A stretch of 63,056 nt of DNA, the filler included, from Psammoneis japonica (Eukaryota), in NCBI GenBank assembly GCA_008632985.1. It is 4 parts of 4 records of this genome, joined end to end, with 100 filler letters (N's around TTAATTAATTAA, not from the genome) between each part and the next. Parts side by side here need not be neighbours in the genome. Positions count along the whole stretch, not along the records: positions 1 to 23,990 come from QPGO01000244.1; positions 24,091 to 48,050 come from QPGO01000274.1; positions 48,151 to 59,239 come from QPGO01000362.1; 1 more part is not named here. The stretch is one strand, 5' to 3'. Below are positions 1-63,056 of this stretch, one piece after another. The position numbers were made by a program, and so were the translations under genes. Each line of letters opens with the position of its first letter. Position 1 is the stretch's first letter. Under the pieces are notes generated by a model. It was not told the origin of the DNA. It did not search any database and saw nothing but the letters and a program-made list of their open reading frames with translations.

Positions 1-617
1 TGTGTTGGACTTCCTGACTGAGGAAATGGCCAAGGAAATTGTTCCAAACAGCTGTGTCACATTGTCTTGTGAATCTGAGGAGGGATTCTATCTGCTGCAA
101 TGGGATGAACTCCCCCACAAAGCACAGGAGGACAAGGTGTGGAAAGAGTTTGACCCACCCATGGCCGGTGAATGGGTTTGCAAGGGAACGCATCTTAACC
201 CTGTTCCACGGGCCAGAGGATGGCACACTCCCGGTGATGCTGAGGAATGTGAGACAAGAGTGTTGCTCAAGCAAACTGCAATTGCCGACATTGAGCTTGA
301 TGAACCATCAGCCAATCTGGAACTGCCAAGCACGTGCAACAGGAATGAGGCTTCACTTCTTCATCCACGTCATTTGAGTGATGACAAGCATGAAGGAATT
401 CTGGATGCCATCCAACAGCAGGAGGCAATGGATCATTTTGAGGACTGTTCAGACGAGGTGGAGGAACAAGACATCAAAACTGGTGAGTGGGGGGGAGAGA
501 ATGACGACATGGAAGACACTGTGGAGGATGATGAGAGCACGGCAGGGGACAGTGACAGCGACAATTCGGACAAATAAAATGGCAATGGGAAAAGGAACAA
601 ACACTGTGATTGTCATT

Positions 618-1606
618 TTACATCACGCAACTAGAGTGGCCATCCAACACAAAAGCTTTCCTTTTTGCACACAACTTCTGCTGCACCGCCCCAGGAAGTT
701 CGAACTGGTGCACCATGAACACTTGTTGCAGACGCTTTTTAGCCACGCATTTCACCTCATGTTCCTCATTCCCAAGACACCAATTGAAACACTTGATGTC
801 CTTTGCTGGCAATGCAAAAGGGTGGTTGGAATCAAAGATCCATCCACGGTGCAAGGCAATGCAGTGGTTGTTCACAAGATGGCACAAAGTATGAAGTCAT
901 CATTGCAGGTCATCACGTCAAATTCACCACCTGCTGCAAGGGAAATTGTTCAATCCACACTGCCGCAAAACTTCATGTTTGAGTTCTTAGGCAGGAATTT
1001 TCCCTTCAAACGACCATTCAACATGTTCTTTGCAAACAACATGTGCTTGTTGTCAGTGTCAGCATAGTTGGCAGATGTTTGAATGTGAGAAGCAATGCAG
1101 TCTCTCATTTCCACGTCACCAGCACAATCAAGAACACTGGCCAGGGAGGAAAAAACGCAAGTGTCGTTTTGTCCTTGCAGGAATTTCACGGGTGGACCGC
1201 TCTTCGGCAAGTTGCTGTTCAATGGCATCAACACGTTTCCTTCCGGCAAGGAGCAACAACCATCCGATGGCTTCAATTCTTTCAAATCTTTCCACACATC
1301 TGGAAACCGAAACTTAAAATTGCACTCAGTCCAATCCAGGGTTACATGCACAGGACGGTTCCCCTCCAAGCTGCAAGCAATGAAATCAGCTCCCCGCCCA
1401 ACAGGTGGAAGTTTTTGAATCTCCGCTTCAGTCAATCTCTTCAGTTTGGCAATCTGTGGTGGGTTGCAAATTGATTCCACCTTGTTCTTAATCTCGTCCC
1501 TGCATTTTCGATTGAGTTGCTGGGGAACGTTTGGTTTGTGTTTGGCACGTAAAATGAGGCCCGCACATGTGTTCATGGGATGGCCATTCATTTCATTGCA
1601 TCGCAC
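618..1606 (-). pseudogene. Degenerate, frameshifted ORF with a putative papain-like cysteine-protease domain (repeat cargo)
   Basis: ORF 950..1606 has Q-x4-C 'FLQGQNDTCVFSSLAS'. The downstream frame 618..887 has 'HCIALHRGWIFDSN' (His...Asp/Asn). TpA-depleted. The fold assignment is inferred from motif shape only. Confidence 0.4.
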
Positions 1607-1923
1607 GTCAAACCATCATTCCCACAACATGACGCCCTTGTTTTTCCCTTCAAAGCAACCAAACAAGTGAGGAGCGGCTCCTTCAGAATTGCCAGGATGC
1701 TGACGCCTGCTGTTCCATTCACTTGGATCAATCCAAATGAGTTTTTTAACCTGCAACATCACTTGAGTGTCTTCGTGCTCACGCTCGAGTCGATCCCTTT
1801 CTTGTTGGTGTCGCTGCTCTTTGGTCAACCGATGCCATGAAGTGTCTCCTTTTGGCCTTGGTTTCAGGACAGAGCTGCGAAGGCCAATGAGATCCTCATC
1901 CTTGTGCACTCCAGTGATGTCTT

Positions 1924-2514
1924 TCAAAAGCTGATCTCCCGCTTCTCTTCTGCAGCTGGGGCTTTCTCCCTCTTCTCTTTTGCAGCCAGGGCTTTCTCCC
2001 TCTTCTCTTTTGCAGCCTTGGCTTTCTCCCTCTTCTCTTCTGCAGCCGCAGAAACTTCTTCCTTGTGTTCATCGTCCTCCTCGTCCTCAGTTTCCTCTGG
2101 ATCTTGCTCCTCCTGGATTTCGTCTTGCACACCGTCATCTTCCTCCTCTTCCTCCTCTTCCTCAGACAATTGATCCATGGCCCCATCTTCCTCCTCCTGG
2201 TTTTTGTCTCGCAGTTGCAACCTTGCAGTGCCAGCCTCGGCCTTTTGCAGGTCATCCGTCTCTTCAGTGCCCTCCTTCCCCTCTTCCTCTTCCTCCTCCT
2301 CCACCTCTTCCTTCAACCCTGCATCACGGACACTGGCGTGATGCACGCAACGATGGTGACGAATCCTTCTGCAAAACTTGTGCCGTGCAAGTCCAGGAGC
2401 TGCCTTGCACCAATCAGCAAGGTGAGCAAGTGGCTCTTTGAAATGGTCCTTCCTGCTTGGTCCGGCAGGGAAGTGAACTTCAACCATGTGTTTGTCTTTG
2501 GTGACGGCCTCCAC
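1924..2514 (-). pseudogene. Glu/Lys-rich low-complexity ORF remnant with a 30-bp tandem repeat (~1950-2050)
   Basis: Poly-Glu tracts and 'A(A/K)EKREKA' repeats. The + strand shows a repeating gctttctccctcttctc unit. Confidence 0.35.
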
Positions 2515-4259
2515 TAACTCGGAGCATCATTGTGGCTTGAAAGGCTTGCACCACTGGTCCGGCGGACAAGTGGTGCCTCTGCATTCACCATCAGAGGCAA
2601 TCCGCAATGCATGGTTGCACCACCAACCTACAATGATGTCAAACAAGGCCTCGGATGGCAGTCTGTCATCGGGGTCACATGGCCCAAATGAGAAAATCCT
2701 CTGGCAGCCACTCGTGCAACTTGTGAGCACTTTGCATTGTGCGTTGGTGGGAAGTTCGGGAATGCAGGGATCTTCCTGCATGTCATCATCCGACTGTTCA
2801 AGCTTCTCCCTTTTGTGAATGCTCGTCATGAAAAACACAATCGTCATTGTGATCCACAATTTTCTTCAACTTCTTACAGCTGATGCATGGTTTTCGACGT
2901 GGCTTTTCGTCCACCTGCTTCCTCTGAGCGATTTCGTTTGGAACAGAGCAATGGTTGCAGATTGAACCCCAGTGCTGTTTTGCAGATAGAACGGGACATC
3001 TTGTTTCACAGTGGAACTTGACGTGCAACCCCTTCAAAGCCAACATTTCAAAATTGTTCTTCACCCCCTTTGGAGACTTCATTCGTCACCAACTTTGAAA
3101 CACAGCCTCACCAAAAGGCAGCCACGCATGCGTCTTTAAATCTTCGGTCGACTTTTCATCATCGTGCGTTTCTAGGTTTTGAATGTTGACCAAAGATGCC
3201 AAGTGGAATCGGTGCTTGGCAATGCATGAATGATCAGCAATGCATCCTCCTTCAACAAGCAGTTCCACCCAACAGCCTTCATTCTTGCGGATCTCTGTTG
3301 CAACGTTCTGACACTCGGCGCTGAAATGAGGCAATGCCAAAACAATTGCAGAGCTCATTGGAGTAATCCTCTCCTTTGCACACAGGGCAACAGTGTTGCC
3401 TTGATCATTCATCATGAGATCATCCCAGCCCCAGTGTTTGCGGACGTCCGCCAGGTCGGAATGATCACTCATGGTGTCCGTGATGTCCTCAAAACCCATC
3501 ACTCCCATGTGATGAGACTTCAAAGTCTTCTGACAATGAAGACATGCATCCATCTTCTTGACAAACCACAGCAAATGGCTTGGGCAAGTCCAATCAAAAA
3601 AGGACATGCACCTCAACTCAACGGTGCAATCGATTCACTCTCATCACCCATCCCAACCGACACAACCGGAGACTCTGTCACATGGACGCAATCAACAAGC
3701 AGGCCAATGTTTGTCTTGACACGGTGCATCAAAACAGCAGCAACATTTTGCTTGTCCTTCACGGCACCCCTCATCAACATTCCTGATGGCACCACAACCA
3801 ACATCAAGAGGTGCTGGTTCTTGTCCTTGATGTGTTGGTTCAGTTGTGGTGATTCTCGGAGTTAAATTTTTCACAAAACCAATCGACAACAGTGTTGCGG
3901 AATGTGTTCCGTGTTTTGGCACTGTTGAACCCATCCAAACCATTCTTGTGATGAAGAACATGAAAGAGAGGGCTTGTCTTCTTTGTTCCACGATCTTCTG
4001 TGGTCAAGATGCTCAAATCTACAAGACCTTGAGGGCACTCAAGGGGATCAACTGCATCTTGGAGAGGCACAGTGCACCAAGTTTTGGCTTTGCCCTGCGG
4101 TGGGCAATGTTCCGCGAGTGCCTCGACGCAATGCTGGACGCAAAAGGAAACCTTCAACATGCTGGAAGAGTCATCGTTTGCTTGAGGGGAACTGCCCCAA
4201 CGGGACGCTGCTGGGAGGCTACTTTGGCCAATGTGTCCATGGCGAACGCACTGCTTTTG

Positions 4260-4500
4260 CACTCCTGTTTGTACGACAAATGCACTCCAGAGAGGGGGCC
4301 AACATCAGTCACTGCAAAAGTGATGCGGATGAACAGAGGCAGCCCACAAGGCAGTTCCAGATGCTGAAAAGCATCAAACAGCAAGCTGCACTCCCGCTTG
4401 TGCAACAAATGCACTCCAGAGAGGGGGGCAATGTCAGTTGCCGCGAAAGTGATGCGGATGAACAGAGGCAGCCTCCAAGGCAGTTCCAGATGCTGAAAAG
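4260..4500. repeat. Two-copy ~129-bp tandem repeat
   Basis: 'caaatgcactccagaga...cagttccagatgctgaaaag' occurs twice. Copies differ by, e.g., gtacgaca vs gtgcaaca. Confidence 0.85.
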
Positions 4501-7489
4501 TACAAACAGCAAGCGTCACAGTGAAAACAAACCAAGAAAAGTTTGTTCCAGTAGAAACTGTCACTCGGAGAATGCTCGGGCGAATGCTTGAGTTTTGTAG
4601 AAATTCCGAAGGCCCTGGTGCAAAACAACCATAAAACGAGACGTGAGAAGCAACCAGAAAAATGCACGTGCATGGTGACGCGAGCGACTTGCCGAATTCG
4701 AAACGAGAGAACACAAAGAGATGGTGTCATCCGCAATGACAGCAACTCTTTAGAGCCGCAATCGCATTGCGACAACAATGATGTAACTTTGAAATGAAAG
4801 GAACAGATGGTTCCACACAACCGCAAGGGCAAAGAGGGGGTTGTGGAGCAGTGACAGCGGTGTGCTGCATTGTGGCTGGTGTGTGTTGGGTGGACGGCAT
4901 GTGTTCGTAGATAGTCAGCATTGTTCTACACATCACCAGAAAAACATTAAATGCCAACTGACACGATTCTTCCTGTGACGCATTGTGCACCTTGGTTGTT
5001 GCACATGAGCATCAACATCACAAACACATCACGTCACCAAAACAATCAATGTTTGCACAAAGCCAAAAAGTGCGAGCTCTGCCGGGTGGAGACAAAAATG
5101 TTGCACTGAAAACTGCGTGGAAAATCTAGCATGATAAAAAGCAGAGCACCTGGAGCTGGAACAGGCCAGCATGCACTCTGGCCAGCTTGTTTGCAAAATT
5201 GCCACTTTTTCTGTTGGCAATCATCAGCACATTTGTTGCCCAGTGGTTTCAGCACAGAGTTTGCATGCAAAATTTTGTGGGCCCAATGTCACATGGGTTC
5301 CCACCTGCATCTGGAGCTCATCGGCTGCCGGCTGCCCATCACCAAAAACCTTTTTTGTCAGCACCCCACCAATGATGAGAGACCATTTTTGCTCAGCCCT
5401 GAACAATTTGTGAGTTTTCTTGCTCTGGTGCATGGAAAAAGAAGAGCAGCAGCAAAACCAGCCTTGTCATGTCCCCTTTTTGAGAAACACACATTTGGCA
5501 AAAACGCTCTTGAAAGCAGCACTGCAGCCCTCTGGCCTCCTTCAGCCAGTCAAACGGGGGGCTGCTGCGTGAACCACAAAAATTGAAAGCGTGATGAAAG
5601 CACAATTGAAAGCCAAAAGCCCATTGTGCATGAAAGCGTGTGTTTGTTGACCTTTCTGTGTGTGGTTTGGTCGACTTCCGGCTTGCCACAGACTTGCGTC
5701 ACATGCAAAAACAATTGAGCAGGAACACAAGGAAGAAGTCATTGCAAAAAAGACTTCTCAGATTCCTGATTCCAGCTCCTGGCACAGCTGGCTGAAATGG
5801 AAAGATCAGTCCTGCTCTTTTGTCTCTGGGGCCCAGTGCTGACACTGTGGCAGTGATGGGTCAACCATCGCAAAACAGTGAGGTCAAATGCTTGTCTTTC
5901 TCCTCAGGTCAAACAAATGCCCAGCTGATGGAAACTGAAATTGCTGTGTCTGTGTTGCCGTCAGTGTGACATTTTAGTGCGCTCATCTTCTGCGCGAAAT
6001 GTCGTACATTTGAGCACAGTGCAAGGACTCAAATCGCACCGGCAGGATGTGATGATGTGACGTGCCTTGCTTTTGTTCTCTGTTGATGCTTTGAGTGCAA
6101 ACACACCATGATGGCTGCCACAGATGCCGCCATTCAGGACGAGGACTTGACATCAACACAAACACAGGTCGAGTCTGTCATGGAGACTGCATGTTCCAAG
6201 CTTGAATCCTCGTTGTTGACAAGCAAACCTCGTCATCGTCGAAAGGCACAGTGGTGTGAATTGCTGGAAGTGTGGAAAGCATGGGCATGTTAAAGCAAAA
6301 TGTCCTGAAAACAAGAAGGACGAAAGCTCTCAGAATGTGGGCACTTTCCAGGTGATGGGATGGGCTGGATAACCTGATTGCATGCCCAAGAATCCCATTT
6401 CTAAATTGCAATTGCTTGTGCAAAGGAGTGTGTTGGACGTCAGATGGACAACGGCCAGATGATTGGCACTTGAAGAATGCAGCACGGTGTGAGATGTGGT
6501 GCGCATTTATGAGGCATCGCAGAATGGGGCAACGCACTTTCAAAAATCTGGTTCCCAGTGGAATTCTGCTTGCATGGAACTGGTGCCAGCATCTGCAAGC
6601 AGAACACAACAATGCTGCACTCATCACGACTGCAACACGGAAGTCTGTCATGTCGGGTGTGTCAACGTTGTCGCTCTTCTTGCGTGCACAAAAAACACAT
6701 CAATCCGCTGATGTTGTGCATGCAAATTTGATGGGATGCAGGATCTTTGCAAAATCTGGGCAAAAATTGTCCCTTCGTGCTTCACCGTGCTAAAAACCCC
6801 GTGACATCCTCCACAATGAGTGAAAATCCAAACTTTTCATCAAAATCTCTTGTCGCGTGCTCATTCAGTGCTTCATTGATGCAAACAAATGAGAAAACTC
6901 CAAATGCACTCCACAAAAAGTGAATCAAGTCCCACCACGGCCAAAAACTCTGCGTGCTTTCAGCACCAAGTTGTGCATGTCAAAAATCAGTTGTCACCAT
7001 CGCTCAATCAGCTCCCAAAACAACTCGATCATTGTCATCCAACATTTATGCTGCACTCATTGTTGTGCAAGTTGTCGTCTCGGTGCACCAGAACCCCCCA
7101 GTTGGCTGTTGTTGTCATGTGCGGCCATCGCTGATGTCGCGGCATCGTTGCCGTGATGTTTGTGTGTGTTGGAGTGAATTCAAATCGATCACTGTGAATT
7201 TCACAGCACATTCTGCATGCGCAAATTTTGTGCAGATTAGCGTGGGAACCGGATTTTTGAAAAGTGGGTTGCCCCATGACTCTCACTTTTTAGAGCAACA
7301 CTCAACTGTCAGCACACTGTGCATTTGTGGATTGTGCAACAGACAGGAGTCTCCAGGGGTTACAAATCCAAGACTGGGAAGGGAGCCAGCATGATTGTTG
7401 CAAGTTCATCAGCGCCAAGGGTGCCATGGCCAGGAAGTCATTGCCAAAGCTCCTCCGTGACGAATGGCATCATGGGATGAAGAAGCCTG

Positions 7490-7863
7490 TGTGGGTTTGT
7501 GGCAGTTTACGCCGCAGAGATAGAAACAGCAACAACAGACAATTTGGGAGGTGCGAATTGACCAGCTGCTTGACAACCAATGAGAATTTGTAAAGAACAA
7601 GAAGTGACCCGCATTTGCACCGGACTCAACACAGATGAACATGGTGCAAAGACTTGTCAGGAATGAGAAGTTCTTGATTGCATGAAAGAAGAACAGAAGT
7701 GAGGCTCAATTCTCGATTTGAACCCCAGACCTCCGACCTCATTCGTTTCTCGATCTGTGATTGGGTGAGTCGTTGATGGTGGTTGATGGCGGTTTCTGAG
7801 CGGCCATTGTCACACGCAGGACTTGATGGCACACTGACACATGAATGTGTGTGCATTCTCACA
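7490..7863 (-). repeat. 3' LTR of the copia element
   Basis: Aligns with 13544-13905. Has TG...CA termini and lies next to the PPT. Confidence 0.9.
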
Positions 7864-7889
7864 CTCCCTCACACTGAAATGTCCAAGTT

Positions 7890-10800
7890 GCCACCATCCC
7901 TGAACCAAGAGACGATGGCGAATGAACATCGCTGGGTCCGGCATTTTAGTCAGGAAGTTGGCCTGTTGGAGTTTGGTCCCAACAGCTTCAATCAAGAGAC
8001 GTCCGTTGGCGACTTCAGAGTGGAAGTGGTGACAGATGTTGTTGACATGGCATGTTCTTGGATGCATCTTGGGCACTTTTGCAATTTCAAGTGCAGCCGA
8101 GTTGTCTTTGAACAGCTTGCAGTGGACTGTTGGTGTCTTTGCCACAGGACAAAACTTCTCATTCACCTCCTCAAGGAGGTGCATGGATGCTTTAACATGC
8201 CTGGTGGCAGCCGACAAGGCCAAGCATTCACTCTCACTGCTGCTGAGAGCAAATTGAGTCTGTGGCTTGGAAGACCAGCAGAGAGGAGCCCCTCCACACT
8301 TAACAACATGGCCGCTGCGAGACTTTGCTGTGTTGGGGTCCTCTGCCACGATTGCCTTGTCCCAATTGCCACAGAAGTCAGCATCCACACAGCACTCAAA
8401 GCTCTTGGTGCCATCTGGAGGGACCTGAATGCAGTGGCCCTTGTCACGAGTCAGCAAAAAGCACCGTCCAAGGTGCTTGAGGGCTGCTCCATGGGATTTC
8501 TTTGGATTGGCGGTGAAGCGAGCCAGTTGGTGAGTTGTGTGCATGACATCAGGGCGAGCAGACTTCTCAAGGAAGTGACTTTGCCCACAACCGATCGGCA
8601 GTCGAAATCACAATCAAAAGGTTTGCCGTCAAAGTCAGGCCCAATGAGCCCAGCAGAGAGGGCTGGAAGCTCCCTGGTGGTCACTGCTTTCTTCGGCATT
8701 CCATCCTCGTTGACAAGTCCAAAATCAATGAGAATGCTGTTGATGAGGTGAGGCTGAGCCAAGTGATGTCGGTTCTCGTCCCTCTGAATCTTGACTCCAA
8801 GGCATTCGTCAATGGTTCCTTCGTCCTCCACATCGAATGTGGTTTGCATCAACTTGATGACCTTGTCAATGTTCGCTGCAGACTCCCAATCAAAGACAAG
8901 ACAATCATCTGTGTGGACCAGGAGGACTGTGGTTCCTCTGCAGAAGACACATTCATTGCACTCTGATGGAACAAATCCGAGTTGCAACAAACGGGCGCAG
9001 AGATGTTTGTGCCAAGTTCGTCCACTGTCATGTCCGCTGTAGATGTTCTTCTTAATGCGGAGACAAAATTTTTTGTGTGATCAATGCCAGGAAACATCAC
9101 TCCCCCAGGTAGTTCCATGAAGGTGGGCCGTGGAATGTCCGCTTGTGGACACGCAAGGACAAAATCAACCTGTCTTGAATGCCAGCCATGCATGACACAT
9201 GGACACAGGAACAGATGGATTGTTGTCCAGGACAAAGCAGGTGCACTAGTCTGGTCACAGTGCTTTCCGGGAATTTGCTTGTGCCCGCCAAGATTGAGCC
9301 GACTCTTCCATTTATAGACCTCTCGTGTGTGAATTCGGTGCTCGCGCTTCATTGACCATGCTGCTGGTGGGACAGTCTCGTCGTCAGGCACATTGGATTT
9401 CTCACACAGTTCCCAATGATCATGAGTGGTGTGGTCTCGAATTTCCTTCACCATGGCCTCCTTGAACTGCTCTGCATCTGGCTGCTTCATGGCTTCATGC
9501 ACGCACATGGCATCTGGATCAGCAGAGGCCTTCAAGGAGCAAGCGATGGGATCATCAAGTTCTGCTTGAAAATCTTGTTCTGAGCACATGTCCTGGTCCA
9601 GCACTTCGAAATCGGCTTGATGTGATGCAACATTGGCCTGCTGCTGCAGTTCCGACTTGATCACACGCTGTGTTGGCTGAACAGTGCATCCAGACTGTGT
9701 CATTTGCACTGCTGGTGGAGGCTCTGGTTCAGGGACTTCGGACTCCGGCAGTGATTCTGGGGTCTCAGAGACTCCCTCATTTGTTGCATTTGTCGTGTCT
9801 TCCTCGTCTTCCACCAACTCATCTGGTGCGGCTGCCTCCAAAGGCATTTCAGTGGGTTCGGCACCATGGTGGGCACTTGTCGTGATTCATGTGGTCTTGA
9901 CGCATGCCGTTGCTGCGGTCTTCTCATCAAGTCATGGTTGAAGTTTTGAGTCTTGGATGAAGTGGCAGATCTGCTGCCAGCGGGACTCAGTCGTGCGTTG
10001 GGATTTGAGTGTTTCAAACAAATTGTCAAACCTCATGTGACATTGTGGTGAGACCATCTTCGTGGCGAGATTTAAAACCAAAGCAACCAAATGAGAGTGT
10101 CTTGGCGATGGTCCAAGATGTGGACCAACTCGAGAGCAAGGGTCCCACTTGGGTGTGGTGTTGTTGGCCTGCAATTTGTTGTTGAGAACACAGGCTGGAC
10201 AGGCGAACGGATGAAAGTGCCAAATTTTGGGTTTCACTGGTGCTTTTGAGAAAAGTTTGATCGGCAACGCTTGTTGACCAGCTCTTGGCACACAGTTGTG
10301 CACAGCATTTGCGCATCAAACAGTGCAGGGCCACAGAGCCACCTCTGCTGCTGCTGGCCATCGATGCTTGGCGTGCATGAGTTGTGTGCGAGCCAAATCT
10401 TGGAGGTCACGGATTCTTTTCTCGCAAATGCTGTTTTGAAAATGTGCATTGACTCCACAAAAGGACATTGTTTGGTTTGCATCCTTCACTGCCTTGAGGC
10501 ATGCATTGTCTGCAAAACAACCGTTGTCGGCGTGGCAGTGACGAATGTGGACTCCGAGTGATCAAGAGTGCACTTCAAACGCATGCTTTGCCGCTGCCGT
10601 CTCAACTCCAGTCAAAGTTGTTTGTGGATGAACGAAAGAGAGGTCACTGCAGTGATCAACGAACAAAGCAGCGCATTTGCATCGTTTTGTTGTTGCCCAG
10701 CCTTTCAATTGGCCTGCTGGTCCTGGTGTTGTCGCGTCGACTTGATCCACCGACACGCACTGACCAGGCTCAGCAGCCTTGAACATTTTGTGTTGTTTGT

Positions 10801-12115: not shown

Positions 12116-12130
12116 ACCTGACTGCCACCT

Positions 12131-13454: not shown

Positions 13455-13520
13455 GGTGTCGTCGTTTCGGCGTCCACGACATTGGGCTCTGGTTTCTGCA
13501 ACAATTTTGAACTGAGTCAG

Positions 13521-13543
13521 GTCTCTATAGCGCAGAGGAAGCG
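13521..13543 (-). promoter_or_regulatory. Putative primer-binding site complementary to a tRNA 5' end/D-arm
   Basis: Lies immediately inside the 5' LTR. The + strand GTCTCTATAGCGCAGAGGAAGCG has the layout of tRNA positions 1-24, with an initiator-Met-like D-loop (AGAGGAA). Confidence 0.55.
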
Positions 13544-13905: not shown

Positions 13906-13970
13906 ACGGGCTTGATAAGCTCAAGGTAAACATCGCAGAGATCGTCGATCCAGAGAGAATACGCAGCCTG

Positions 13971-48150: not shown

Positions 48151-48697
48151 GAGTGACATCGAAAGAGATGGAGCTGTGAGCTGTGAGTCATTCTCACTGC
48201 AGAGGATTGTCGCCACAAACAAACGTTGTTATGATCGAACGAGAACTTCGATGGGAATTATGATGTTTCCCGGATGTCAGGCAGGTTTTCCTATCCATGC
48301 TGTGGCGGTTGTGCAACATCGGTAAATTTTGAATTTGGAATGGCAATGTTTGTGTTTTTTCGGAATTCTTTTTGGAAACAGCCTCATGAAGTGTCACAGC
48401 GAATTGTAATTGCCTCGCTTTCAATGTCTGCGGTTTTGGGGACGACGAGTCGTCATCGAAATACTGTACCGACAAAATTGTTGGATCTGATCTTGATCGT
48501 ACGGTACGTATTATTGTTCGACAGCACGATTCTCATCTCTCCAGCTTCTTTTGTTCTCTCTAATTTATGGCTACCGTGTTACTTGTAAGGAACGTCACGA
48601 GCAACGCTTGGAGTATGATGGATGAAGCGCCACGACGGGTTCCTATCAAAATCGTCGGGTGGTATTTACAAAAATTTGCGGTCGACGGACGCATTTT

Positions 48698-51600
48698 CTA
48701 GACCATCACAAGCTCAGTCTCGACTCCGGCTGCCTCTAGCTTGCGCTTCACCTTGATTGCATCTTCCTTCTTATAGGCCTCCATGTCTTCGAGTGGGTAA
48801 GGTTGATCCAGAGCTTCGTACTTGTCTCGACCGAGTTCGTGGTAAGGAAAAAGCTCGACGTGCGTAAAGACCGGGTCGAGCTCTTTGGCGAAGTGTATCA
48901 ACTTATCAAGTTCAGAGTCGGTGTCGGTAAGGTTTTTGAGAAGGACCCAACGGAGACTCAATTTGACATGGTCTGCATGGTTGTTGCGAATGTACAACGC
49001 AAAATCCTTGGCCCTCGCCATGTACACCGTCGGATGACGGGCCACATACGCCGCTGTGTCATTATTCATGCCCTTTAAGCACAGCATGACATAGTCTGTA
49101 TGCTGCAACACCTTCTCCCACTGAGGCTCTTGTCCATAGCACGCCGTGTCAAGGCAGGTGGTTACTCCCAAGTCGTGAGCTCGCTCGAAGACAGAGGCAA
49201 CAAAATTGGGCTGGAGCAACGGTTCTCCTCCAGAAATGGTAACTCCGCCCTCTCGTGGGATAAGGAAGGATTTGTACTTAGCCACAATGGACACAAGCTC
49301 TTCATCCGTCATGGCAAACTCTGGATGGCTTTCGGGGTTCACAATATCCTGGGTCTCGGGATTGCAGCAAAATAGACAGCGCTTCGGGCACCCCTGAAGG
49401 AAAATATTTACGCGAATGCCGGGCCCATCGGAGGTAGAGAACGTCTCAAGGGAATATACACATCCCTTCACCACTTTTTGGTCGGGACGCCGCCCGTACT
49501 GGTATGATAGCTCTGACCCTTGCTTACTGTCCGTTGTCTTCTTTTTGTTCAAGATGGATGTGACGCCGGAAGAGTGCATTGTGCGGGCCATGACTTCCGT
49601 TCTCTGTTCGGGACTGAGCTTAGCGAACTTGACACAGTATCCACCAACTCGAATCGTTAGATTCGGATACTTCTCCGGATGTTTATCCGCGTCTTGGAGA
49701 ACCTCTCGACTCAATACATTCACGTTGATATGATGCGCATCCCGCTCAAAGTAACCATCAAGCATTGTAACCAGATTCCGAGGCCTTTTGTCGGGAGAAA
49801 AGCCCAGAGCAGTGGGGAGCAAACAAAATGTGTTGGACACACCGTCCATGCATTTTGCGTATGGAATCTTTGCGACGGATGCCAGCGACGCAAGGGATCC
49901 ATTCTTATCGCGACCGTGCATAGGATTCGCTCCGGGTGCAAAGGGTTCTCCCTTGAGACGGCCGTCAGGCGTTGCGCCGGTCGCCTTGCCGTACACGACG
50001 TTGCTCGTAATCGTCAGGACAGATAGTGTGGCCTTGGCATCGCGATAAAGCTCCTGCTTATCGAGTTCTTCGTGGAAGCGCGAACATATCTTTAAGGCAA
50101 TGTCATCGACTTGGTCATCGTTGTTTCCAAAAGTGGGGATATCGAGGCTTGGATCTTCTCTTTGGAAGCCAACCGTAAGGCCTTCCTCATTGCGAATGGG
50201 GTAGACCTTGTCGTGCTTTATCGTTGAAAGTGAATCTGCGACGACTGATAAACCGGCAATGCCGAATGCCATGAACCGATTCACATTTGTATTGTGGAGT
50301 GCCATTTGGATGTTCTCATAATTGGCACGATCATGCGCAAAGTGAATGCAATTCATTGTCTCGGCGTACAACTTGGCCATCCATGGCATGGCGATATTAA
50401 AGTACATCTTTTCGACCTTTTCGTAGTCCAGCGGGCGATTTTCGTCGCCGGTGCCGACACCAGCGTCCTCGCAGGCCTTCTTGAGCTCGGGACAGAGCAA
50501 TTCGCCGTGGCTCTCATCTCGTCCTCCGTTGAGACACATGAGGAGTAGCTTCACCATGTTGGTACGGGCACCAAAGAACTGCATATCGATGCCGGTTCGC
50601 ATGGCGGATACGCAGCAGGCAATCGAGTAGTCACATCCAAAGATGCTTCGCATCATCTCATCGTTCTCGTACTGAATCGATGACGACGTAATCGACTGCT
50701 TGGCGCAGTAGTTCTTGAAGCCTTCGGGGAGACTTGAAGACCACAACACGGTAAGGTTGGGCTCAGGTGCCGAGTTTAGGTTTGTAAGCGTGTGAAGGAA
50801 GCGGAAGGTGGTCTTTGTCACGAGGCTACTGCCACTTTCTGAACAACCTCCCAACGCGAGTGTGATCCAGGTAGGATCGCCCGAAAACAAGGCATTGTAC
50901 TCTGGACTTCTCAAATGTCGAACTAGGCGCATCTTGATAACAAGATCGTCTATGATCTCTTGTAGCTCCTCTTCCGTCGCCACACCAGCAGCAAGGTCCT
51001 TCTCGGCGAAAATGTCTAGGAAGCCGTCCCACCGACCGACACTCATGGCGGCACCGTCCTGTTCCTTGAGTGCGGCCAAGTGTCCCAGCCACATGGCTTG
51101 AGCAGCTTCCTTGAAGGACGCGGATGGCTTACGGAGGTCAACGCCGTAGGCATCCGCCATGAACAACAGCTCCTTGAGGGCGATAACTTGCTTGGTAATC
51201 TCGGATCGCAGACGCATGTCGGATTCGGTGCTACCAGAAATGGCGACGTAATCCTTTTTCTTCCTTGAAATGAGCTCATCCACACCAAAGAGTGCGAGTC
51301 GACGGTAGTCGCCAATGATTCGACCTCGTCCATAGGCGTCCGGCAATCCCGTAAGCAAATGAACGTGTCGTGCTTGGCGCATTTCCTTGGTGTACGTGCT
51401 AAAGACCAGGTCATTGTGCGTTTCAACGGGACCGCCCGCACCGTAGGTTGCGGCCATGGCATCATCGGCTTCGTAGCCATAGCTCTTGAGTGCGGCCTGG
51501 ACTACCCTAAATCCTCCACGTGGTTTGCAAGAGCGCTTGAGGGGTTCATCGGTTTGAAGACCGACAATCACGTCCTCGTCGGCGGAGAGAAGGTAACCGG

Positions 51601-52071
51601 GTCCATGGGACGTAATGGTTGATGCCTTCTTGGTGTCGACATCTAAGACTCCCTTTTTCAGTTCAAGCTCCATCAACTCTTCACATCGCTTCAGACACTT
51701 GAGAGTACGTTCGGTTGGTGGAGCAAGGAAGGACTCATCGCCGTGGTAGGGTTTCGCCTTTGCGAGAACAAAGGTCTTGACGTCGCAGTCTCCCGGAGAA
51801 GGATCGGGTTTGACGAGTTCGGGTAGCTGGTGAGTTGCCGGTGGTTGCTTACTACCCTGTTGTAGTTTGAGAACACTACGGTCCTCCGGGGATACCGCTG
51901 TGGTTGGTAGAGAAGGGGGGGAGGCACTATGTGAGCGACAAAATGATCAAACCCGTTGCTGTTGAGCCTCATAAACAATTACAACTTCGTTCACTCACAT
52001 CGTACTCGGCCCGCTTCAGAATACCCAAGGGGTTGCTGGTTGATAAGCCTTACTCGACTTGTAATGGTCAT
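48698..52071 (-). CDS. pflB-pflA: Pyruvate formate-lyase fused to its radical-SAM activating enzyme. Predicted exons 52071-51999 and 51897-48698
   Basis: PFL motifs: [10 protein letters not shown] (upstream of the listed ORF start), [41 protein letters not shown] and [16 protein letters not shown] motifs: DGPGIR...[28 protein letters not shown] and [10 protein letters not shown] 101-nt GTGAGT...pyrimidine tract...CAG intron keeps exon 1 in frame. Exon 1 is less certain than the rest. Confidence 0.95.
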
Positions 52072-52949
52072 GGTTTGTATTTTCAAATGCGATTCTTTGT
52101 CGTGTTTCTCTTGTTTGTTTTTTTGTGAGAATTGGCGGTCGGTTCGTGGCCAATTCTTGGGTTCGCATTTGCGATGTGTTTGGGTCGGTTTCATCGGCAT
52201 TTTCAATTATGGGACGTCCGTTAGTGTATCTTCTGTGAATCCCGCCGTGACATTTGCCACGACTTGAAAGAGATGTACATACTGGTTGGCACATAGGTTC
52301 TACGTGTATTTTTTAGCGATGTATCTTATCCAGGTGGCGGATATGCCTACGACATCAGAACATAACGACACCCGTGATGTCGCCTTTTCACAAAAAATCG
52401 GAATTCTCAATTACATCGTTCCGTTCTTGCAACGAATGGTAAAGAGTAAAAGGAATCAATCCAGTAAGGCCCTACCGTGTCGGAAGGAGATAAATGAGTC
52501 GTGTATCCCAAACAATGGAACGGGGTTGAAGAGAGTGAATGAAGGTCGCGTATGAACAACTAGTCGCGGAAGAACTAGTCGCGGAAACTGAGGAGAGAGA
52601 ATAGCTTATAATTTTAGTTGTGTGACAATAATCAATAATATGCTAGGCTCCGAACATACCGAAAAGAGTACGAGTACACAATTGCTGCCTTTCACAAATT
52701 CGGAATTCTCATCTTTACAGAAGAAACCAATTCAGCGCGACAAAATCCAAGCACGTGCTTCGACGACTCCACGCGTCTGGTCGTTCGTCTGTGATCGCAA
52801 TTTCGGTGAGAATCAATCCAGTACTGGAGCGAAAGAGTACACGATAAAGCAAAGTGTTGCATCACAAGAATTTCAGATATGCTCCCTTCTGATTTTAAAA
52901 AGAAAGAAATAACATCTAAAATTGTTTATCTTTTACAACTATCTATCTA

Positions 52950-54086
52950 TTAGACAGGACTGTCGTTTGGTGTTGCACTCTGTCGCGTAGACGATATGAT
53001 TTGCTCGTTGTTTTCACCTTGTTCCACATTGCGATCATGACCAATATTTCTCCAGAAGCTTCTGATTCGTTCCCATGATACGCAATTGCCGTTATTCGTG
53101 TTGCCCATGGTATCAAACACGTACCAGTAGACAGCTCCGATGCAAAGCCCACCACCGACCAAATTCCCCAGCGTCGCGGGCAACAGGGCTTGAAACAAAA
53201 GCTTCGACGCGGAAATGTCGGCGCCCAGCATCATTCCGACGGGAATCAAGAATTGATTGGCGATGCAGTGGTCCAATCCCATGGCGACAAAGCCGGCAAT
53301 GGGAAACCACAGCGCCAACACCTTGCCGGCCACCTCTTCGGCACAAGTTGCTTGCCACACTCCGACACACACCATGAGATTGGCACCAATAGCCTTGAGA
53401 AAAATATTCAACCAAGGTTGGTTGGCCTTCTTCAGTGCGACTTGCACGGCATAGTCATCTTCCCCTAAATCTTGCAACGCATCGCTGAGATACCCAATAA
53501 ACAAGGCCCACAAGAGGCATCCCACAAAGTTGAAGCACCACGATACGGTCCAGTTGCGACACAGCTTTCCAAAGCTCACGTTCCCGCCCAAAAGCGAGGC
53601 GACAAAAATAAGAGCGTCGCCGGTGAAGAGTTCGGCGTTGGTAAGCAAGACGGCAATCAACCCCGTTGGGAACAAGGCGGCGCCCAGCAGTCCACCGCCG
53701 ACACTGAGAAAGAGTTGGCCCGCCATGCCAATATACACCCCGGCCATGATGGACTGTACCGCCAAAACGCGGAGCGTCAATCCCGCCTTGTACTGACCCG
53801 CCTTGTAGATTGCTTGGAGAGCATCCTTGGGAGATTTTGTGGCGGTATGATGAATCAGTGCGGATGGCATCAAGACCACCGGCTGTACTTGTTGTTGTTG
53901 CTGCCGTGGTGATGTATCCGTCCTTGATGTTGTTGTTGTGGTAGGTTTGCTCTTGTTGTCGTCGTCATCGTCCGACAGTGACGAGCATGCTTCTTCCTCG
54001 TCGTTATGGGTTTGTTTGCACTTCAACGAGTTGACGTCGTCGTAGTGGTCGTTTTGTACGGAACTGTCGCTTATCAAGTTGCTCAT
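52950..54086 (-). CDS. Formate/nitrite transporter (FNT, FocA/NirC/NAR1 family)
   Basis: 'LFPTGLIAVLLTNAELFTGD', 'FLKAIGANLMVCVGVW', 'FVAMGLDHCIANQF' and 'TLGNLVGG'. Likely start MSNL at 54086. The longer ORF runs into TpA-depleted repeat DNA. Confidence 0.95.
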   Translation of the reverse strand: MSNLISDSSVQNDHYDDVNSLKCKQTHNDEEEACSSLSDDDDDNKSKPTTTTTSRTDTSPRQQQQQVQPVVLMPSALIHHTATKSPKDALQAIYKAGQYKAGLTLRVLAVQSIMAGVYIGMAGQLFLSVGGGLLGAALFPTGLIAVLLTNAELFTGDALIFVASLLGGNVSFGKLCRNWTVSWCFNFVGCLLWALFIGYLSDALQDLGEDDYAVQVALKKANQPWLNIFLKAIGANLMVCVGVWQATCAEEVAGKVLALWFPIAGFVAMGLDHCIANQFLIPVGMMLGADISASKLLFQALLPATLGNLVGGGLCIGAVYWYVFDTMGNTNNGNCVSWERIRSFWRNIGHDRNVEQGENNEQIISSTRQSATPNDSPV

Positions 54087-55633
54087 GGTGAAATTCTGTA
54101 AAGTGTTCGTTTTGTGTGCGGCGATCGGCGAAGCAAGACAAAAAAAAAAAAGAATTGAGAATGGGCGTTGGATCGGCATTTTCGTCGAGAAAAATGCGAA
54201 CTGTGTGCCGTACGTACGTCGTGCGTACAGAATGTTTTTTCGTCGCGATGATGGGACCCACGTTCTCTGTTCTGTGACGCCATCAAGGCACCTGCTTGGT
54301 GCCCTGCCCTCCTGCTGAGACAGCACCCCCCCTGGCTCCATGTTGTGCAATCTGGTTGCCAGCGTTGGAGCATCAGTTGCCTCATGCATCATGAACTGGC
54401 CTCTTCTTGTTGCTCGTTGCAGCCAATTTCATGTGTTGCCATCAATTGAAAACAGCCAGTGGAAAAGAGTTGGGGGCGAAGCAACAGGTCATCTGATGAG
54501 CAGACAATGGCTGTGGAGTGACATGTCCAGTGCTCTCTGAATGCACTGCAGGGTTGCCTCTGCCACCCAGAGCACCCTGCCTGACTCTTTGGCACTTCTC
54601 TCCGTCCTGGTCGATGCTCGACATGACGCTGTGCTGCTGGGCTTGAGGTGCCATGGAGCAGGGGGCGGGGTTGCCTGGAGCACAAATCTTTTCTCCAGGC
54701 TGCCTGTGACATGTTCAAAGCACCATGCACTGCATGTTGTTTTTTCTGCTGCAAAATCTGTTTCTCTGGAGCAAAGCCAGGCACAGCCACGTTGTCAAAT
54801 CATTTCACATCAACAGAGGCAAGTTTTGCGTTGGTGAGTGCATGAAAACCAAAACAATGAAGTGAAGCTCAACCAAGCAATTCTTGTAGCCAGCGTTGCC
54901 CTTGTCATGATGATGGCTCATGATGGTCTCGCTGGCTCTGCCAGCATTTCTGTTGACAACGTCAGCTTTTCAGTGCAGCGCAAAGATCTCGCCATTTGAC
55001 GGCTCTTTGTGAGACAAGTTTGGCCATGCAGTCACAGTCTCTGGTGACATGGTGGCAGTTGGATCCATTTTTGATGAAAACAAGAAGGGATCCATCCACA
55101 TCCATCAGGGACAAAATGGCTCCTGGGGACAAACACAGAAACGTGGTGTTCCCAGAGGCCAGCGATGTCCAAAAGGACTTTCACATTGGCAACGTGGAGG
55201 TTGTCATGTCTCACAAGACACCTTGGTCGTGCTGGGCAAGTCATGACTCAACGTCATTCTGGTCGCATCTCACGACTGCAACCCAGACTCAGATTTTCTC
55301 TTCGAAACAATTGGCTCATCACAAAATCGATTCAAACAGAAGCAACGACATTCGTCATAATTTTTAGACAACGACTTTGAACAAGCATCTGTTCACCTCT
55401 GTGCTGTTCACATTGCCACCAACCTCCGAGGTCTTGTCCATCCTACCCAGCTGCAGGACTGTATCTCGACTGGTCACAGAACCCAAGTTTGCGCGTTGAC
55501 GAGAGCTCCTGACTGAGTCATCGTCACGGACGCTTTCGGTTTTGATTTTGAAGCAAACCCGGGAAACAGCTGAGTCTCTCTTGCTTCTCTCGTCTTCATT
55601 CTAACAAGAACCTCCCATGCTGCACTCTCTGTC

Positions 55634-58600
55634 ATGGCTGCCATCGATCCGGCTGTTCTGGCGAAGGCGTTTGCCGACGCAATGGCTGCTGATGCCGCAG
55701 CGACCGCTCCTCCGCCTCCAACCAAGCCGTTGCGTGGTGGAGTTCACCCAACCCACGGGGTTTGCATTGGTGGTTCCAAACTCAACGACAGGTGTGAACA
55801 ATCCAACGATAGAACCCACCGATTCGCCTCTCAGCGCCGTCATCCCAAGGCTCTTGACTCGACAGAACGATCTCTCCGCGATCAACAAGCTTCCGCAATG
55901 ACTTCCAAGTTCAACGGTCGACTTGAGATTTCGGACGGTCCCATCAACGAACTTGACAAGGACCATTTCGTCAAGACTGTTCGAGATCCAGTGGAAGCCC
56001 ATGGTCAGCAGACGTTCTACCATGTCAAGAACAGCGACGACACAGTTCAACACATCTTCGATCATCTTCACGAGTTTGCTGTGACCGATCTCGTGAACGA
56101 GCACACGGTTCGGAAAGCAGCTGCCAATGACACCAAGTACGACGAGATCGAGCTCGACGACATCGGGCTCTCTCAACTTCTTGTTCACTCAAGAATCACC
56201 AATGCCTTTCGCGAGAAAATCGAGACCAAGTTCAACCATCTCCAAGACCACCAAGACTGCCCTGGATCTGTTCCATTCATGATGGCTCTCGACACTTGCA
56301 ATGCCAGCGCTCCAACGGACATTGAGACGGCCAAGAAGCAGCTAGAAGACCTTGGTTTGGTTAACTGTCCCGGCGAGGATTGCACGGACTTTGCTGCCGA
56401 AGCTCTTCGCATCGTGAAAATTGTGCAGACCGACTGTGCGCTTCCGGCGAACACAAGCTCCAAGCCCACTCCACAAGATCTCCTCTACGTCCTCTGAATG
56501 CTTCAATTGGTGAGTCTACAACAAGCTCGACGACGTCAAGGCTGTGGAACGCAAGCACCGCCTCAAGAATCCTGCTGACATCGTGTCCGACAGCGATTGC
56601 AACACGCTCGGACCGGTCGGCATCATTGCGTGGATTCAGGAGCAACACAACGAACTCGTGAAGGACGGGGAGTGGCCTGCATTGGTCGCCAAGCTACCCG
56701 AGAGCAATCTTTCGACTACGGACAACCCTGGGAAGATGAAGCACTGCTTTGGTTGCGGTATCGAGGGGCACACCAAGAAGACGTGCCCGAAGTGCAATGC
56801 CAAACCGCCGCGCGACGATCCTCCTCCCAATCCGCCGCCTGCAGCCGACCCTTCTAAGAAGAAGAGGTGACCCATCGCTGCCTGGCGCACCAAATTTGAC
56901 GGGGAAACGAAGAAGGACAAGAATGGCAAGGAATGGAAATGGTGTGCCACGTGCACGGCGAAGGGTGCCGACAAACCTGGAATTTGCCAGAAGCACTCTA
57001 CTGCGGAACATGCCGAAGACCACCACAAGCGCCCTCCCAAGGAGACCCCAGCCGGGAATTTGTCTTCCGTTGCTGATCCGGATGGTGGCGTGCCCATGGG
57101 TCCACCAGCTCAGACTGCCATGGAACCAGAGGGAGACGACTCCGACCCCAACGAGTTGGTTTTCACGGGAATGTGGTGCGCGGCTACGGATGCCGTTGCC
57201 GACCCGGATTTCTGTTCCGCCCCTGTTGCTGCTGCAATCATTGTTGCTCCGGCTTCTTCGGCCGAGAGGGAGAGCAATGCAGTCATTAGTGCTGAGGTGG
57301 TTTGCAACGAAACGAGCCCACCTGTGCTCACCTCAGTCGTGGATCCAGTCGTGTCTCCCATTGTGGTTGAGACTGTCACTCCCGAAGACGCCGATGACTT
57401 CTGTGAATGCTCCGACGCTTTCTCTACATTTGAAAACGAACCACCGGCTATTGAGTTGTTTCCGGCCTCGAAGCTGTGCTCCATCAAGCATCCAGATGAG
57501 TTCTTTGATGCTCCCGCACATTTGATGGACATGCTGTCAGATGACACAAAGTTGGATCTCATCCTTGAACACGACGTACACTTTGAAGACGCATGCTACG
57601 ACTTGCCTCCGTGTGTCACATGTCGTGGCTTCGATTTCCATGATCCAGAGGTCCTGGATGCGGATGATTGTCACGAGGACGTCGAAGACGAGCCCACTTC
57701 GCGTCGATCAATCTTGGGACGGGTCAAGCTGTTCACATTCTGGCTCGCCGCCATGTTTTGGGAAACGGTGCCACATCTTTGCTTTGCTCCGATCCCATGT
57801 GTCCCTCGAGCTCTACGCCGCCAGCGCAAACTCCCAACCTTGCACGGGTTTCCAGCCTCCTGGATGGTCCCATCCGTTGCAGTGATGGCATGGTCAGCAG
57901 TTTGCGCCGGTCAACAGCCCGAGTGTCCATTCTCGAACGTTCCAAGCCGTTTTTCGACCGCCAGCTCTCAAGTCTGACATGTTGTGGAAGAGCTAGATGA
58001 CCGGATAGTGTTGGACACGGGGTCACTGTTCGAATGTCACAGGATCAAAGGCACGCAAGTGCTCACCGAGTTTGTCATGCGCCATCCATCACACGCACTG
58101 AGCACTCGTCTCAAGGCCTGCTGGGAGAGCCTGGAAGTCCCTTGACGGTCTGATGCGATAGACGAATCAGCCTTCTTTGATGCCCATGAGGCACTGGAAC
58201 CTCTCGACGACCAGAAGTGTTTCTTCGACGCTCTTGAGGACTTCAGCCCGGATTTCTTCCGGTTTGACGAGCTCTGTCTGCCGAATCACATCGTGGACAC
58301 CACCCATTTTCAAGATCCTGTGGAACTGTTGGAGGAAGCAAGTGTTAGACCCGTCATCTACAACACCTCCACCATCCAACTGCTCACCGGACAATCTCAA
58401 GCCGACCTCCTTGCATCCGATCCGCAGGCACTCATCGGCCTGTCGGACGAGGCTCTCACGGTCGTCATGGACACTGGCGCCATGCCAGCTGTTGCCCCCG
58501 ACAAAGATGATTTTACGGGGCCTGTGACTGTTCCCAAGAAACCCTTGCAGATCAATGGGATTGCCAACAGTCTGACCATCCAGGGTGCCGGTCCGGTTGC

Positions 58601-59239
58601 GTGGGTGTTCACAACGCTGAGTGGCGCTGCCATCCAACTGAACACCATGGCATGCTACGTCCCTGGAGCCCGTCAACGCCTGCTGTCGCCTCAACGCCTC
58701 TTCAACGAAGAGAAGGGGGCACGTGGGAAGTGTGAGGGCGATGAAACCACTTTCCGTTTGCATGTTGACGGGATGGGCAAGTTGGTCGTGCCACATCATC
58801 AATCAAGCCACTTGCCTGTTGCGTCGATGACCAAGGGCGCATCTGCCGCTCCACAAGTGAATCTACAGATCCTCAATGAGGAGAATCAAAACCTCACGGC
58901 AGGCCAGAAGCTTCTCATCGAAATGCACGCCCGTTTCGGCCATTTGAACTTTGGTCGCGTCCAAGCACTTCTCCGCGCAGTTCCGTTCCTTTCGAACCGT
59001 TTCAAGTCCGCAGCGAAGTGTGACCACCCAAGATGTGAGGTGTGCAAGTGTGCTAAAGGTCACAGACGCTCCCTTGGATCTACTCACAAGTCGACAGTCC
59101 CTGAACGCGACGGGGCCCTTCGAGCTGACCATCTTCGACCGGGTCAGGCTGTCAGCGTTGATCATTTTGAGTCGCGCCTTTTAGGCCGAACCTTCGACTC
59201 ATGTGGCAAAGCCACGTCCAAGCAATTCAAGGCGGTTGC
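55634..59239 (+). mobile_element. Third copia element (gag, protease, GAG-pre-integrase, start of integrase), cut by contig end
   Basis: Zinc knuckle 'CFGCGIEGHTKKTC', protease 'VVMDTGA', 'RLLSPQ', 'HARFGHLN...CEVC' and 'VSVDHFES'. Stops and frameshifts present. Some Tyr retained. LTR limits not defined. Confidence 0.9.
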
Positions 59240-63022: not shown

Positions 63023-63056
63023 TTTGCTCTTTTTGAACTCGGAGATCAGCAGTCGA

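Follow-up and report, generated by a model that had tools for sequence, protein, structure and literature searches.

The stretch of DNA analysed here (the window; 63,056 nucleotides of assembly GCA_008632985.1) raises the question of why one dinucleotide, TpA, is nearly absent for kilobases from its transposon, satellite and pseudogene sequence and is kept at ordinary levels in several of its genes. The answer that we favour, at a probability of roughly 80%, is that silenced, repeat-rich domains of this diatom genome undergo hypermutation of TpA to TpG or CpA, a process of the same kind as that described in Bigelowiella natans. The changes run in one direction and are specific to TpA, they arose after insertion of the affected elements, they cover whole domains including single-copy DNA, and they stop at edges a few hundred base pairs wide. 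TpA loss coincides with decay of CpG to TpG and CpA.

Over the whole window, the observed/expected ratio (O/E) was 0.17 for TpA, 1.58 for CpA, 1.52 for TpG and 0.64 for CpG. TpA O/E was below 0.25 in 51 of the 63 1-kb bins and at least 0.5 in only 9, with values of 0.55–0.75 in the gene islands, which bears out the near-absence of TpA from transposable element (TE), satellite and pseudogene DNA described in the initial annotation. We compared a depleted set (1–13500, 16300–23990, 24091–44212, 44276–48050 and 54300–59239; 50,023 bp in total) with a normal set (13900–16250, 48151–54200 and 59340–63056; 12,113 bp in total). The depleted set held 229 TA dinucleotides and the normal set 421. TA made up 0.46% of dinucleotides in depleted and 3.48% in normal DNA, and CG 3.40% and 6.14%, respectively; TG (10.08% and 7.79%) and CA (10.19% and 7.38%) together reached 20.27% in depleted DNA, which has a GC content of about 50%, compared to 15.17% in normal DNA. 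The sum of TA, CG, TG and CA was almost equal in the two sets (24.1% and 24.8%), the mass balance expected if TpA and CpG both become TpG or CpA. TpA is thus removed and CpA enriched, in the direction opposite to fungal repeat-induced point mutation (RIP), as had been proposed.

At least four contigs make up the window. Linkers of 44 N, TTAATTAATTAA and 44 N, read directly at 23991–24090, 48051–48150 and 59240–59339, lie between separate contigs; TTAATTAATTAA is a six-frame stop linker for stringing contigs, and any feature that runs across a linker is therefore a construct. A further gap of 63 N occupies 44213–44275. The TpA-poor domains (deserts) and TpA-normal islands are as follows.

1..13500, contig A: desert 1, repeats and one Copia long terminal repeat (LTR) retrotransposon; TA O/E 0.03–0.24 per kb, read depth as high as about 9900 (single-copy DNA, about 60).
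13900..16250, contig A: island with a DUF4116 gene (15125–16249, minus strand; Pfam DUF4116, E 1.4e-70) and an open reading frame (ORF) at 13902–14567; 42–47 TA per kb, depth 57.
16300..23990, contig A: desert 2, partly single-copy; 3–8 TA per kb from 17 kb on.
24091..48050, contig B: desert 3, subtelomere-like, with a satellite, tandem repeats and a 3.4-kb duplication of nearly identical copies; 0–10 TA per kb.
48151..54250, minus strand, contig C: island with a PFL-activating enzyme fusion and a formate/nitrite transporter (Pfam); 24–57 TA per kb, CpG O/E about 1.
54300..59239, contig C: desert 4; TA O/E 0.10–0.22, CpG O/E 0.67–1.01.
59340..63056, contig D: not hypermutated; FG-GAP repeat gene at 60382–61995, minus strand (Pfam FG-GAP_2).

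The proposal that the boundaries track repeats held in part. Three of them lie within contigs, at about 13.5–13.9, 16.25–16.3 and 54.2–54.3 kb, whereas those near 48.1 and 59.3 kb lie at contig joins and carry no biological information. The first within-contig boundary runs across the right LTR of the Copia element, the second falls at the 5' end of the DUF4116 ORF, and the third lies in the N-terminal part of the stop-to-stop ORF of the formate/nitrite transporter (FNT), upstream of its Pfam domain. At these edges TA per 100 bp rises from 0 to normal over a few hundred bases. Since non-coding DNA in the islands also retains TpA (42–57 per kb), the islands are spared regionally and not through codon selection. 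At the DUF4116 gene, no more than about 50 bp separate the 5' end of the stop-to-stop ORF from the start of the desert (16250–16400), so that the presumed promoter of an apparently intact gene sits in hypermutated DNA.

The island genes showed the normal composition that had been claimed for them: TA O/E was 0.61 in PFL (Tyr 3.5%), 0.40 in FNT (Tyr 2.0%) and 0.69 in DUF4116 (Tyr 2.9%). The FG-GAP gene had a low TA O/E of 0.25, yet its Cys content was 0% and its CpG O/E 1.03, with no signature of Tyr replaced by Cys; its low TpA reflects its amino-acid make-up.

The polarity of the changes was read from the Copia element and a related fragment.

7479..13898, minus strand: Copia-type LTR retrotransposon; LTRs 7479–7813 and 13535–13898, RVT_2 8454–9886, gag-pre-integrase 10565–12130 (Pfam).
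58146–59288, plus strand: Copia gag/integrase fragment (Pfam), in desert 4.

We compared these with 232 homologues found by tblastn (83 full-length relatives and 149 more; the best named relative came from Epithemia), taking as conserved the 442 columns in which at least 15 homologues were present with at least 70% agreement. The window agreed with the homologues in 348 of these columns. Conserved Tyr, however, was kept in only 2 of 21 columns (20 in the element and 1 in the fragment near 59.2 kb), the others reading 13 Cys, 3 His, 2 Phe and 1 Ser, while non-Tyr residues were kept in 346 of 421, each at 46–100% (His 21/21, Phe 20/20, Pro 35/36; Fisher p = 5e-12 for Tyr against the rest). The integrase ORF of the window had 0% Tyr, 5.2% Cys and 5.7% His. 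Intact homologues had ordinary Tyr contents (2.05–4.2% in the 83; median 3.0% in the further 149), so Cys and His are not native to the family at these positions. All five motifs in which the initial annotation read a lost Tyr were found: HTDD (8904–8915), SGHVVKC (8296–8316), ECLALS (8212–8229), CEGEW (41695–41709 and 45100–45114) and DGNCGC (38516–38533), all on the minus strand. Ancestral Tyr was confirmed at three positions in the Copia motifs, namely 8915 (His of HTDD; Tyr in 94 of 96 homologues), 8298 (Cys of SGHVVKC; 62 of 86) and 8226 (Cys of ECLALS; 64 of 84); the His of SGHVVKC fell outside the conserved Tyr columns. The OTU-like ORF that carries DGNCGC had no Pfam match at E ≤ 0.01.

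The 94 differing columns were reduced to single-base, amino-acid-changing steps. Those from A or T to G or C (AT>GC) were A>G with a preceding T in 19 cases, T>C with a following A in 9 and A>G with a preceding C in 1. The rest were 14 G>A with a preceding C, 2–3 C>T with a following G, about 4 transitions of other kinds, 23 transversions and 20 columns requiring several steps. Thus 28 of 29 polarised AT>GC changes fell at TpA, against about 15% expected from the PFL coding sequence (p ~2e-22), and none fell at ApA. Together with the Tyr columns, these results uphold the claim of a near-saturating, TpA-specific A:T>G:C process with a 5'-T context. GC-biased gene conversion is disfavoured as a source of the pattern: it would raise all AT>GC changes, and only 1 of the 29 lay outside TpA.

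Sequence outside the Copia DNA showed the same signature.

18357..18938, plus strand: HSP70-like pseudogene fragment, the C-terminal ~190 aa in three frame pieces (tblastn with 17 homologues), in desert 2.
29628–33226: satellite of 113–115-bp units, in desert 3.
36027–37454: tandem repeat of 357 bp, four copies, in desert 3.
40871–44212 and 44276–47618: duplicate copies, 99.7% identical, with the N63 gap between them.
47584..48050, plus strand: telomere-like hexamer array at the end of contig B, G-rich strand outward (TRF period 6, 74.2 copies).

Against its 17 homologues (51–68% identity), the HSP70-like fragment differed in 40 of 151 conserved columns. All three conserved Tyr were lost, now reading His, Cys and His, and changes of the CpG-decay type were also present (Thr>Met at three positions, Arg>Gln at two, and one each of Arg>His and Arg>Trp). 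The parent belongs to a divergent family of about 610–630 aa that is known only from marine transcriptome and metagenome proteins, some of which carry the label 'L1 cell adhesion molecule like protein' from their source. Satellite columns mixed TA, TG and CA across units; one column held CA in 14 units, TG in 2 and TA in 1, and another TA in 10 and TG in 2. Each duplicate copy, of about 3.3 kb, runs into telomere-like array, and the pair may represent separate chromosome ends, or two haplotypes that scaffolding placed in head-to-tail order. The array comprised 31 units of TTGGGG, 17 of TCAGGG, 5 of CCAGGG, 4 of CTGGGG and none of TTAGGG. If the native repeat is TTAGGG, which we take to be the diatom telomere repeat, then each unit has lost its TpA by one of the two possible routes.

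The two LTRs of an LTR element are identical at insertion. Here the LTR pair was 85% identical, the left LTR, deep in the desert, holding 3 TA and the right LTR, beside the island, holding 9; at 6 sites the left had TG or CA where the right had TA, and at 1 site the reverse was found. The element was therefore already in the chromosome when the process acted on it, and the effect weakens over the last few hundred bases of the domain. These data bear directly on a route through RNA, in which retrotransposon transcripts would be A-to-I edited at UA and the edited copies inserted. As a sense-strand process, such editing would produce the excess of Tyr>Cys over Tyr>His seen in Copia (13 against 3, p = 0.02). 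However, the same split is predicted by a preference for T-A-pyrimidine (Cys to His was 7:1 in the eight Tyr columns with a pyrimidine before them, and 6:2 after a purine), both strands were affected (19 A>G and 9 T>C), the LTRs came to differ at 7 TA sites only once they were in place, and the satellites, the telomere-like array, the HSP70-like pseudogene and single-copy DNA were depleted equally. RNA editing is refuted as the sole cause and is the least probable of the explanations that we considered, although it could still contribute, and the split between Cys and His may include a residual sense-strand bias.

Read data were consistent with the window sequence. A public run (X1) held 76% of sampled words from 11000–19000, and its contigs matched island and desert alike at 13869–16269 (1 other letter), 16271–16960 (4), 18003–19270 (7) and 22682–23900 (2), at a word depth of 57–70. 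In a second run (X2), one contig spanned the boundary at 16.3 kb (15051–16684, 2 other letters). Because these contigs carry the bases of the window, an assembly artefact is excluded, and the raw-read check proposed earlier came out positive as to the bases; as to independence it succeeded only in part. Depth was about 250–560 over the Copia element and about 9900 over one repeat. Across 18608–20599 it was 63–65, close to the 57 of the island, yet only 3–7 TA per kb remained. Since stretches at single-copy depth were as depleted as repeats, the target looks like a chromatin domain and not repetition. The description of the process as repeat-targeted was accordingly correct in that it is confined to domains, and too narrow in that single-copy DNA was equally affected.

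The same read data bear on whether any special process is needed, given that GC-biased gene conversion, selection against TpA, foreign DNA keeping its native composition, or an artefact of sequencing or assembly might be invoked instead. TpA is under-represented in most genomes, and at 0.55–0.75 in the window's own genes, and the window consists of concatenated contigs. However, desert and island share a contig and a read depth, a read contig bridges the boundary between them, the polarity was established against homologues, and pseudogenes and non-coding satellites are not under selection. We regard an explanation of this sort as very improbable.

CpG decay to TpG and CpA is the usual mark of cytosine methylation. 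Median CpG O/E was 0.56 in depleted bins and 1.03 in normal bins, and TpA and CpG O/E were correlated over all bins (Spearman 0.60, p = 2e-7) and weakly so within the deserts (0.30). In desert 4, CpG was nearly normal despite the loss of TpA. TpA loss and CpG decay thus share domains but are two processes. Decay of methylated CpG (5mCpG) affects the same domains and yields the same products, with 16–17 CpG-type changes in Copia, yet it cannot remove TpA, and the loss of TpA (3.0 percentage points) was as large as that of CpG (2.7 points); it is a co-occurring process and not the explanation.

The surviving TA sites differed strongly with their neighbours (R, purine; Y, pyrimidine).

R-TA-Y sites: 0.24 per kb in deserts, 10.99 per kb in normal DNA, about 2% surviving.
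Mixed TA sites: 2.42 per kb in deserts, 18.92 per kb in normal DNA, about 13% surviving.
Y-TA-R sites: 1.96 per kb in deserts, 4.87 per kb in normal DNA, about 40% surviving.

A one-parameter model in which A is hit about four times faster before a pyrimidine predicted about 9% survival of mixed sites, and the product ratio (YTGY+RCAR)/(YCAY+RTGR) was 1.38 in deserts compared to 1.09 in normal DNA. The sites lost first are those of T-A-pyrimidine, or purine-T-A when read from the opposite strand. One surviving TTAC site is present in 10 satellite copies and accounts for an asymmetry in the raw counts by context. Raw TG against CA counts per kb, which are confounded by native coding asymmetry, showed no consistent strand domains.

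Context and CpG decay together bear on error-prone repair, in which a Pol eta-like polymerase in methylated or damaged heterochromatin would misinsert opposite T at WA. Since CpG decays in the deserts, base-excision or mismatch repair of T:G should be frequent there. ApA may also be a weaker target: the array holds 9 CCAGGG or CTGGGG units, and differences between repeat copies were of AA/AG type in 49 cases and GA/GG type in 19, a tally that includes overlapping satellite alignments. A WA hotspot would, however, include ApA, and the polarised AT>GC changes fell 28 at TpA, one at CpA and none at ApA; CpG decay and TpA loss are also only loosely coupled, as desert 4 illustrates. The Pol eta mechanism put forward in the initial annotation is therefore not favoured, and we consider it improbable.

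Several points weigh against TpA hypermutation of silent domains as we read it. The process is deduced from end states in one 63-kb window. Runs X1 and X2 come from one sample, which is probably the source of the assembly itself, with no library type on record. Ancestral residues were taken from homologues 26–61% identical to the window element, not from intact copies of the same family, and the context model presumes that the deserts began with island-like composition. CA/TG double differences were the commonest doublet between repeat copies (17 of 30 in seven non-overlapping pairs), and we rejected them as evidence for TpA loss because an ancestral CpG yields the same pattern.

The remaining points concern other sequences. 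A 24-nt piece of the telomere-like array, used as a probe on JGI metagenome contigs, yielded at least 79 loci. The 79 loci listed were mostly of GC 0.58–0.76, and 71 of them retained TTAGGG; their median flanking TA O/E was 0.92, with none below 0.2 and 1 below 0.4. No further desert was found among these listed loci, one of which (L006) has a window-like GC content. Many GC-rich metagenome contigs (0.6–0.75) carried internal or terminal arrays mixing TTAGGG with TTGGGG, TCAGGG, CCAGGG and CTGGGG. Since mixed arrays are common without TpA loss, the telomere-like array alone is not diagnostic, and only its total absence of TTAGGG fits the pattern of the window. Similarly, just 1 of the 232 database homologues (P0416) shares the loss of Tyr. 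P0416 is a Copia-type polyprotein of another family, 36% identical to the window element and located on a 65,999-bp European Nucleotide Archive (ENA) contig; it has 1 Tyr in 676 residues (0.15%), 4.7% Cys and 5.0% His, and 5 of 6 conserved Tyr columns read Cys or His. The same signature thus appears to be present in another public assembly, which hints that the process occurs elsewhere or that the window species was sampled elsewhere.

A last point is that TpA is palindromic, so A-directed and T-directed chemistry are inseparable from the sequence. The event had been described as A>G at TpA; a transition at TpA stands, and its identity as A>G does not, because the sequence would look the same after T>C at TpA on the opposite strand. 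In a T-directed scheme, a TET/JBP-type dioxygenase would oxidise T at TpA to 5-hydroxymethyl- or 5-formyl-uracil, and mispairing with G or misrepair would give T>C. Oxidised thymines mispair, and the hydroxymethyluracil of dinoflagellates favours TpA. This scheme fits every result equally, since TA>CA on one strand is TA>TG on the other, and the context is equally readable as purine-T-A. On the other side, no diatom report of such a base turned up, with no search aimed at one, and the B. natans study, in the part of its text available, proposes adenine deamination with ADAT2 as a candidate and without an assay. We consider T-directed chemistry unlikely, if less so than error-prone repair.

Under hypermutation of silent domains, each event would be a single A:T>G:C transition on either strand, repeated until almost no TpA remains, and the affected DNA would comprise LTR retrotransposons, satellites and subtelomeric repeats, together with the pseudogene or single-copy sequence that lies among them. 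The targeting signal may be a heterochromatin or 5-methylcytosine (5mC) state rather than repetition itself. The chemistry may be conversion of DNA adenine to hypoxanthine by an ADAT2/TadA-type deaminase, an enzyme class to which we give somewhat less than an even chance; that the enzyme lies outside the classes listed here is unlikely, to about the same degree as T-directed chemistry. Early TadA-derived base editors prefer a Y-A-C context, which is a lead only. The effect would be genome defence, through loss of Tyr codons (including that of the reverse transcriptase YxDD motif), of TATA-like and AATAAA-like signals and of two of the three stop codons.

The loss of stop codons has a visible consequence. 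TAA and TAG are lost in the deserts, leaving TGA only, so that long false ORFs arise in all six frames (for example 27146–29035 on the minus strand and 34928–36994 on the plus strand), and stop-to-stop ORFs of 150 aa or more number 106 in the window, counting both strands. Most long desert ORFs had no family match in Pfam and PHROG scans; no PHROG match at E ≤ 0.001 was found except one without known function (E 3.4e-4), and the one desert ORF compared with the ESM Atlas had no usable match (score 0.76). In our view these ORFs result from the loss of stop codons. Pfam and PHROG scans detected no viral genes in the window, Pfam scans of its ORFs found no deaminase gene, and tRNA and Rfam look-ups gave nothing relevant.

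The organism was placed from the genes of contig C.

48698–51946, minus strand: PFL fused to a radical-SAM activating enzyme, one intronless ORF of 1082 aa (Pfam).
52950–54428, minus strand: formate/nitrite transporter, FNT (Pfam).

The PFL-activating enzyme fusion also occurs in many diatom, Chromera, Polarella and Pycnococcus proteins among the matches. Its top named relatives were diatoms (66–71% identity), and its top relative overall reached 74%. A quick maximum-likelihood tree with 34 rows put the window inside a diatom clade; the smallest starred set containing it had 8 rows (support 99) and included Amphora, with Seminavis, Epithemia, Cyclostephanos and Thalassiosirales outside. From these placements we conclude that the source organism should be taken as a diatom, and nothing finer.

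The initial annotation knew of no description of such a process; one exists. In mutation-accumulation lines of B. natans, an integrated giant virus and a virophage accounted for 231 of 302 nuclear mutations. The rate in these hypermutable regions was about 6e-7 per site and generation, about 1000-fold over background, and 230 of the 231 were A>G or T>C transitions, each of them at TpA (Mettrop et al., bioRxiv 10.64898/2026.01.13.699255). The same preprint reports 124 clusters of TpA-poor, CpA- and TpG-rich windows, with TpA-poor genes enriched in reverse-transcriptase and DDE domains, and names an ADAT2 homologue as candidate; diatoms, telomeres and other species are not mentioned in the portion of the text available (bioRxiv 10.64898/2026.01.13.699255). 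Using the standard O/E in place of the preprint's Rho formula, we found that 39 of 63 windows qualified under its cluster thresholds, with four clusters at 3001–11000, 16001–38000 (22 kb), 40001–43000 and 44001–47000. Our literature search on diatoms, TEs and RIP-like defence returned no description besides this preprint.

As far as the available text of the preprint goes, the two systems agree in A:T>G:C change at TpA giving TpG or CpA, in non-host or silent DNA as the substrate, in the possibility of single-copy targets and in TpA-poor clusters rich in CpA and TpG. Host genes are spared in both; here PFL, FNT and DUF4116 kept TA O/E of 0.40–0.69 and CpG O/E of about 0.8–1.0. They differ in host, a chlorarachniophyte (rhizarian) there and a diatom (stramenopile) here, and in targets, which are viruses there and LTR retrotransposons, satellites, subtelomeric repeats and pseudogenes here. 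The nucleocytoplasmic large DNA virus (NCLDV) region of B. natans still has 3.3% TA, compared to 0.46% here, near saturation. The rate was measured directly in B. natans, whereas here the process is known from end-state sequence. CpG decay, the T-A-pyrimidine preference and the converted telomere-like array of this diatom do not appear in the preprint text available.

Other known systems resemble the window less closely. RIP, in Neurospora and other fungi, is heritable hypermutation of transposons in a dinucleotide context that leaks into adjacent unique DNA and ruins coding capacity. It shares with the window context-bound TE hypermutation that reaches unique DNA; it differs in converting CpA to TpA in duplicated DNA and leaving AT-rich relics, whereas repetition is apparently not required here, single-copy stretches being affected, and TpA is down to 0.46% at a GC content of about 50%. 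ADAR and the fungal TAD2/TAD3 enzymes prefer A after U or T, and repeat-derived targets are known for ADAR. Their substrates are RNA, unlike the chromosomal DNA affected here on both strands, which includes DNA that was never reverse-transcribed. Fungal A-to-I editing with U at position -1 has been reported (PMC11156358).

The same signature at saturation in a diatom indicates that the process is no curiosity of a single lineage, and that ordinary transposons, satellites and chromosome ends are targets, alongside cytosine-methylation decay. It is also a trap for gene prediction, by which Tyr-free 'proteins' such as P0416 can enter databases. Any candidate enzyme must reproduce the T-A-pyrimidine preference. 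Transformation and genome-editing tools exist for some diatoms, and if this species or a relative proves tractable, the enzyme question would be directly testable. More tentatively, and on balance we doubt it, diatoms and chlorarachniophytes may share an old heterochromatin-directed DNA-editing defence, in which an enzyme would read silent or methylated chromatin and deaminate A at T-A-pyrimidine. If true, such a defence would erase TpA from transposons, satellites, integrated viruses and subtelomeric telomere repeats; it would rank as a second genome defence of the RIP-like type, working through a DNA adenine deaminase and spread across the SAR supergroup, and as a possible natural source of double-strand-DNA adenine editors.

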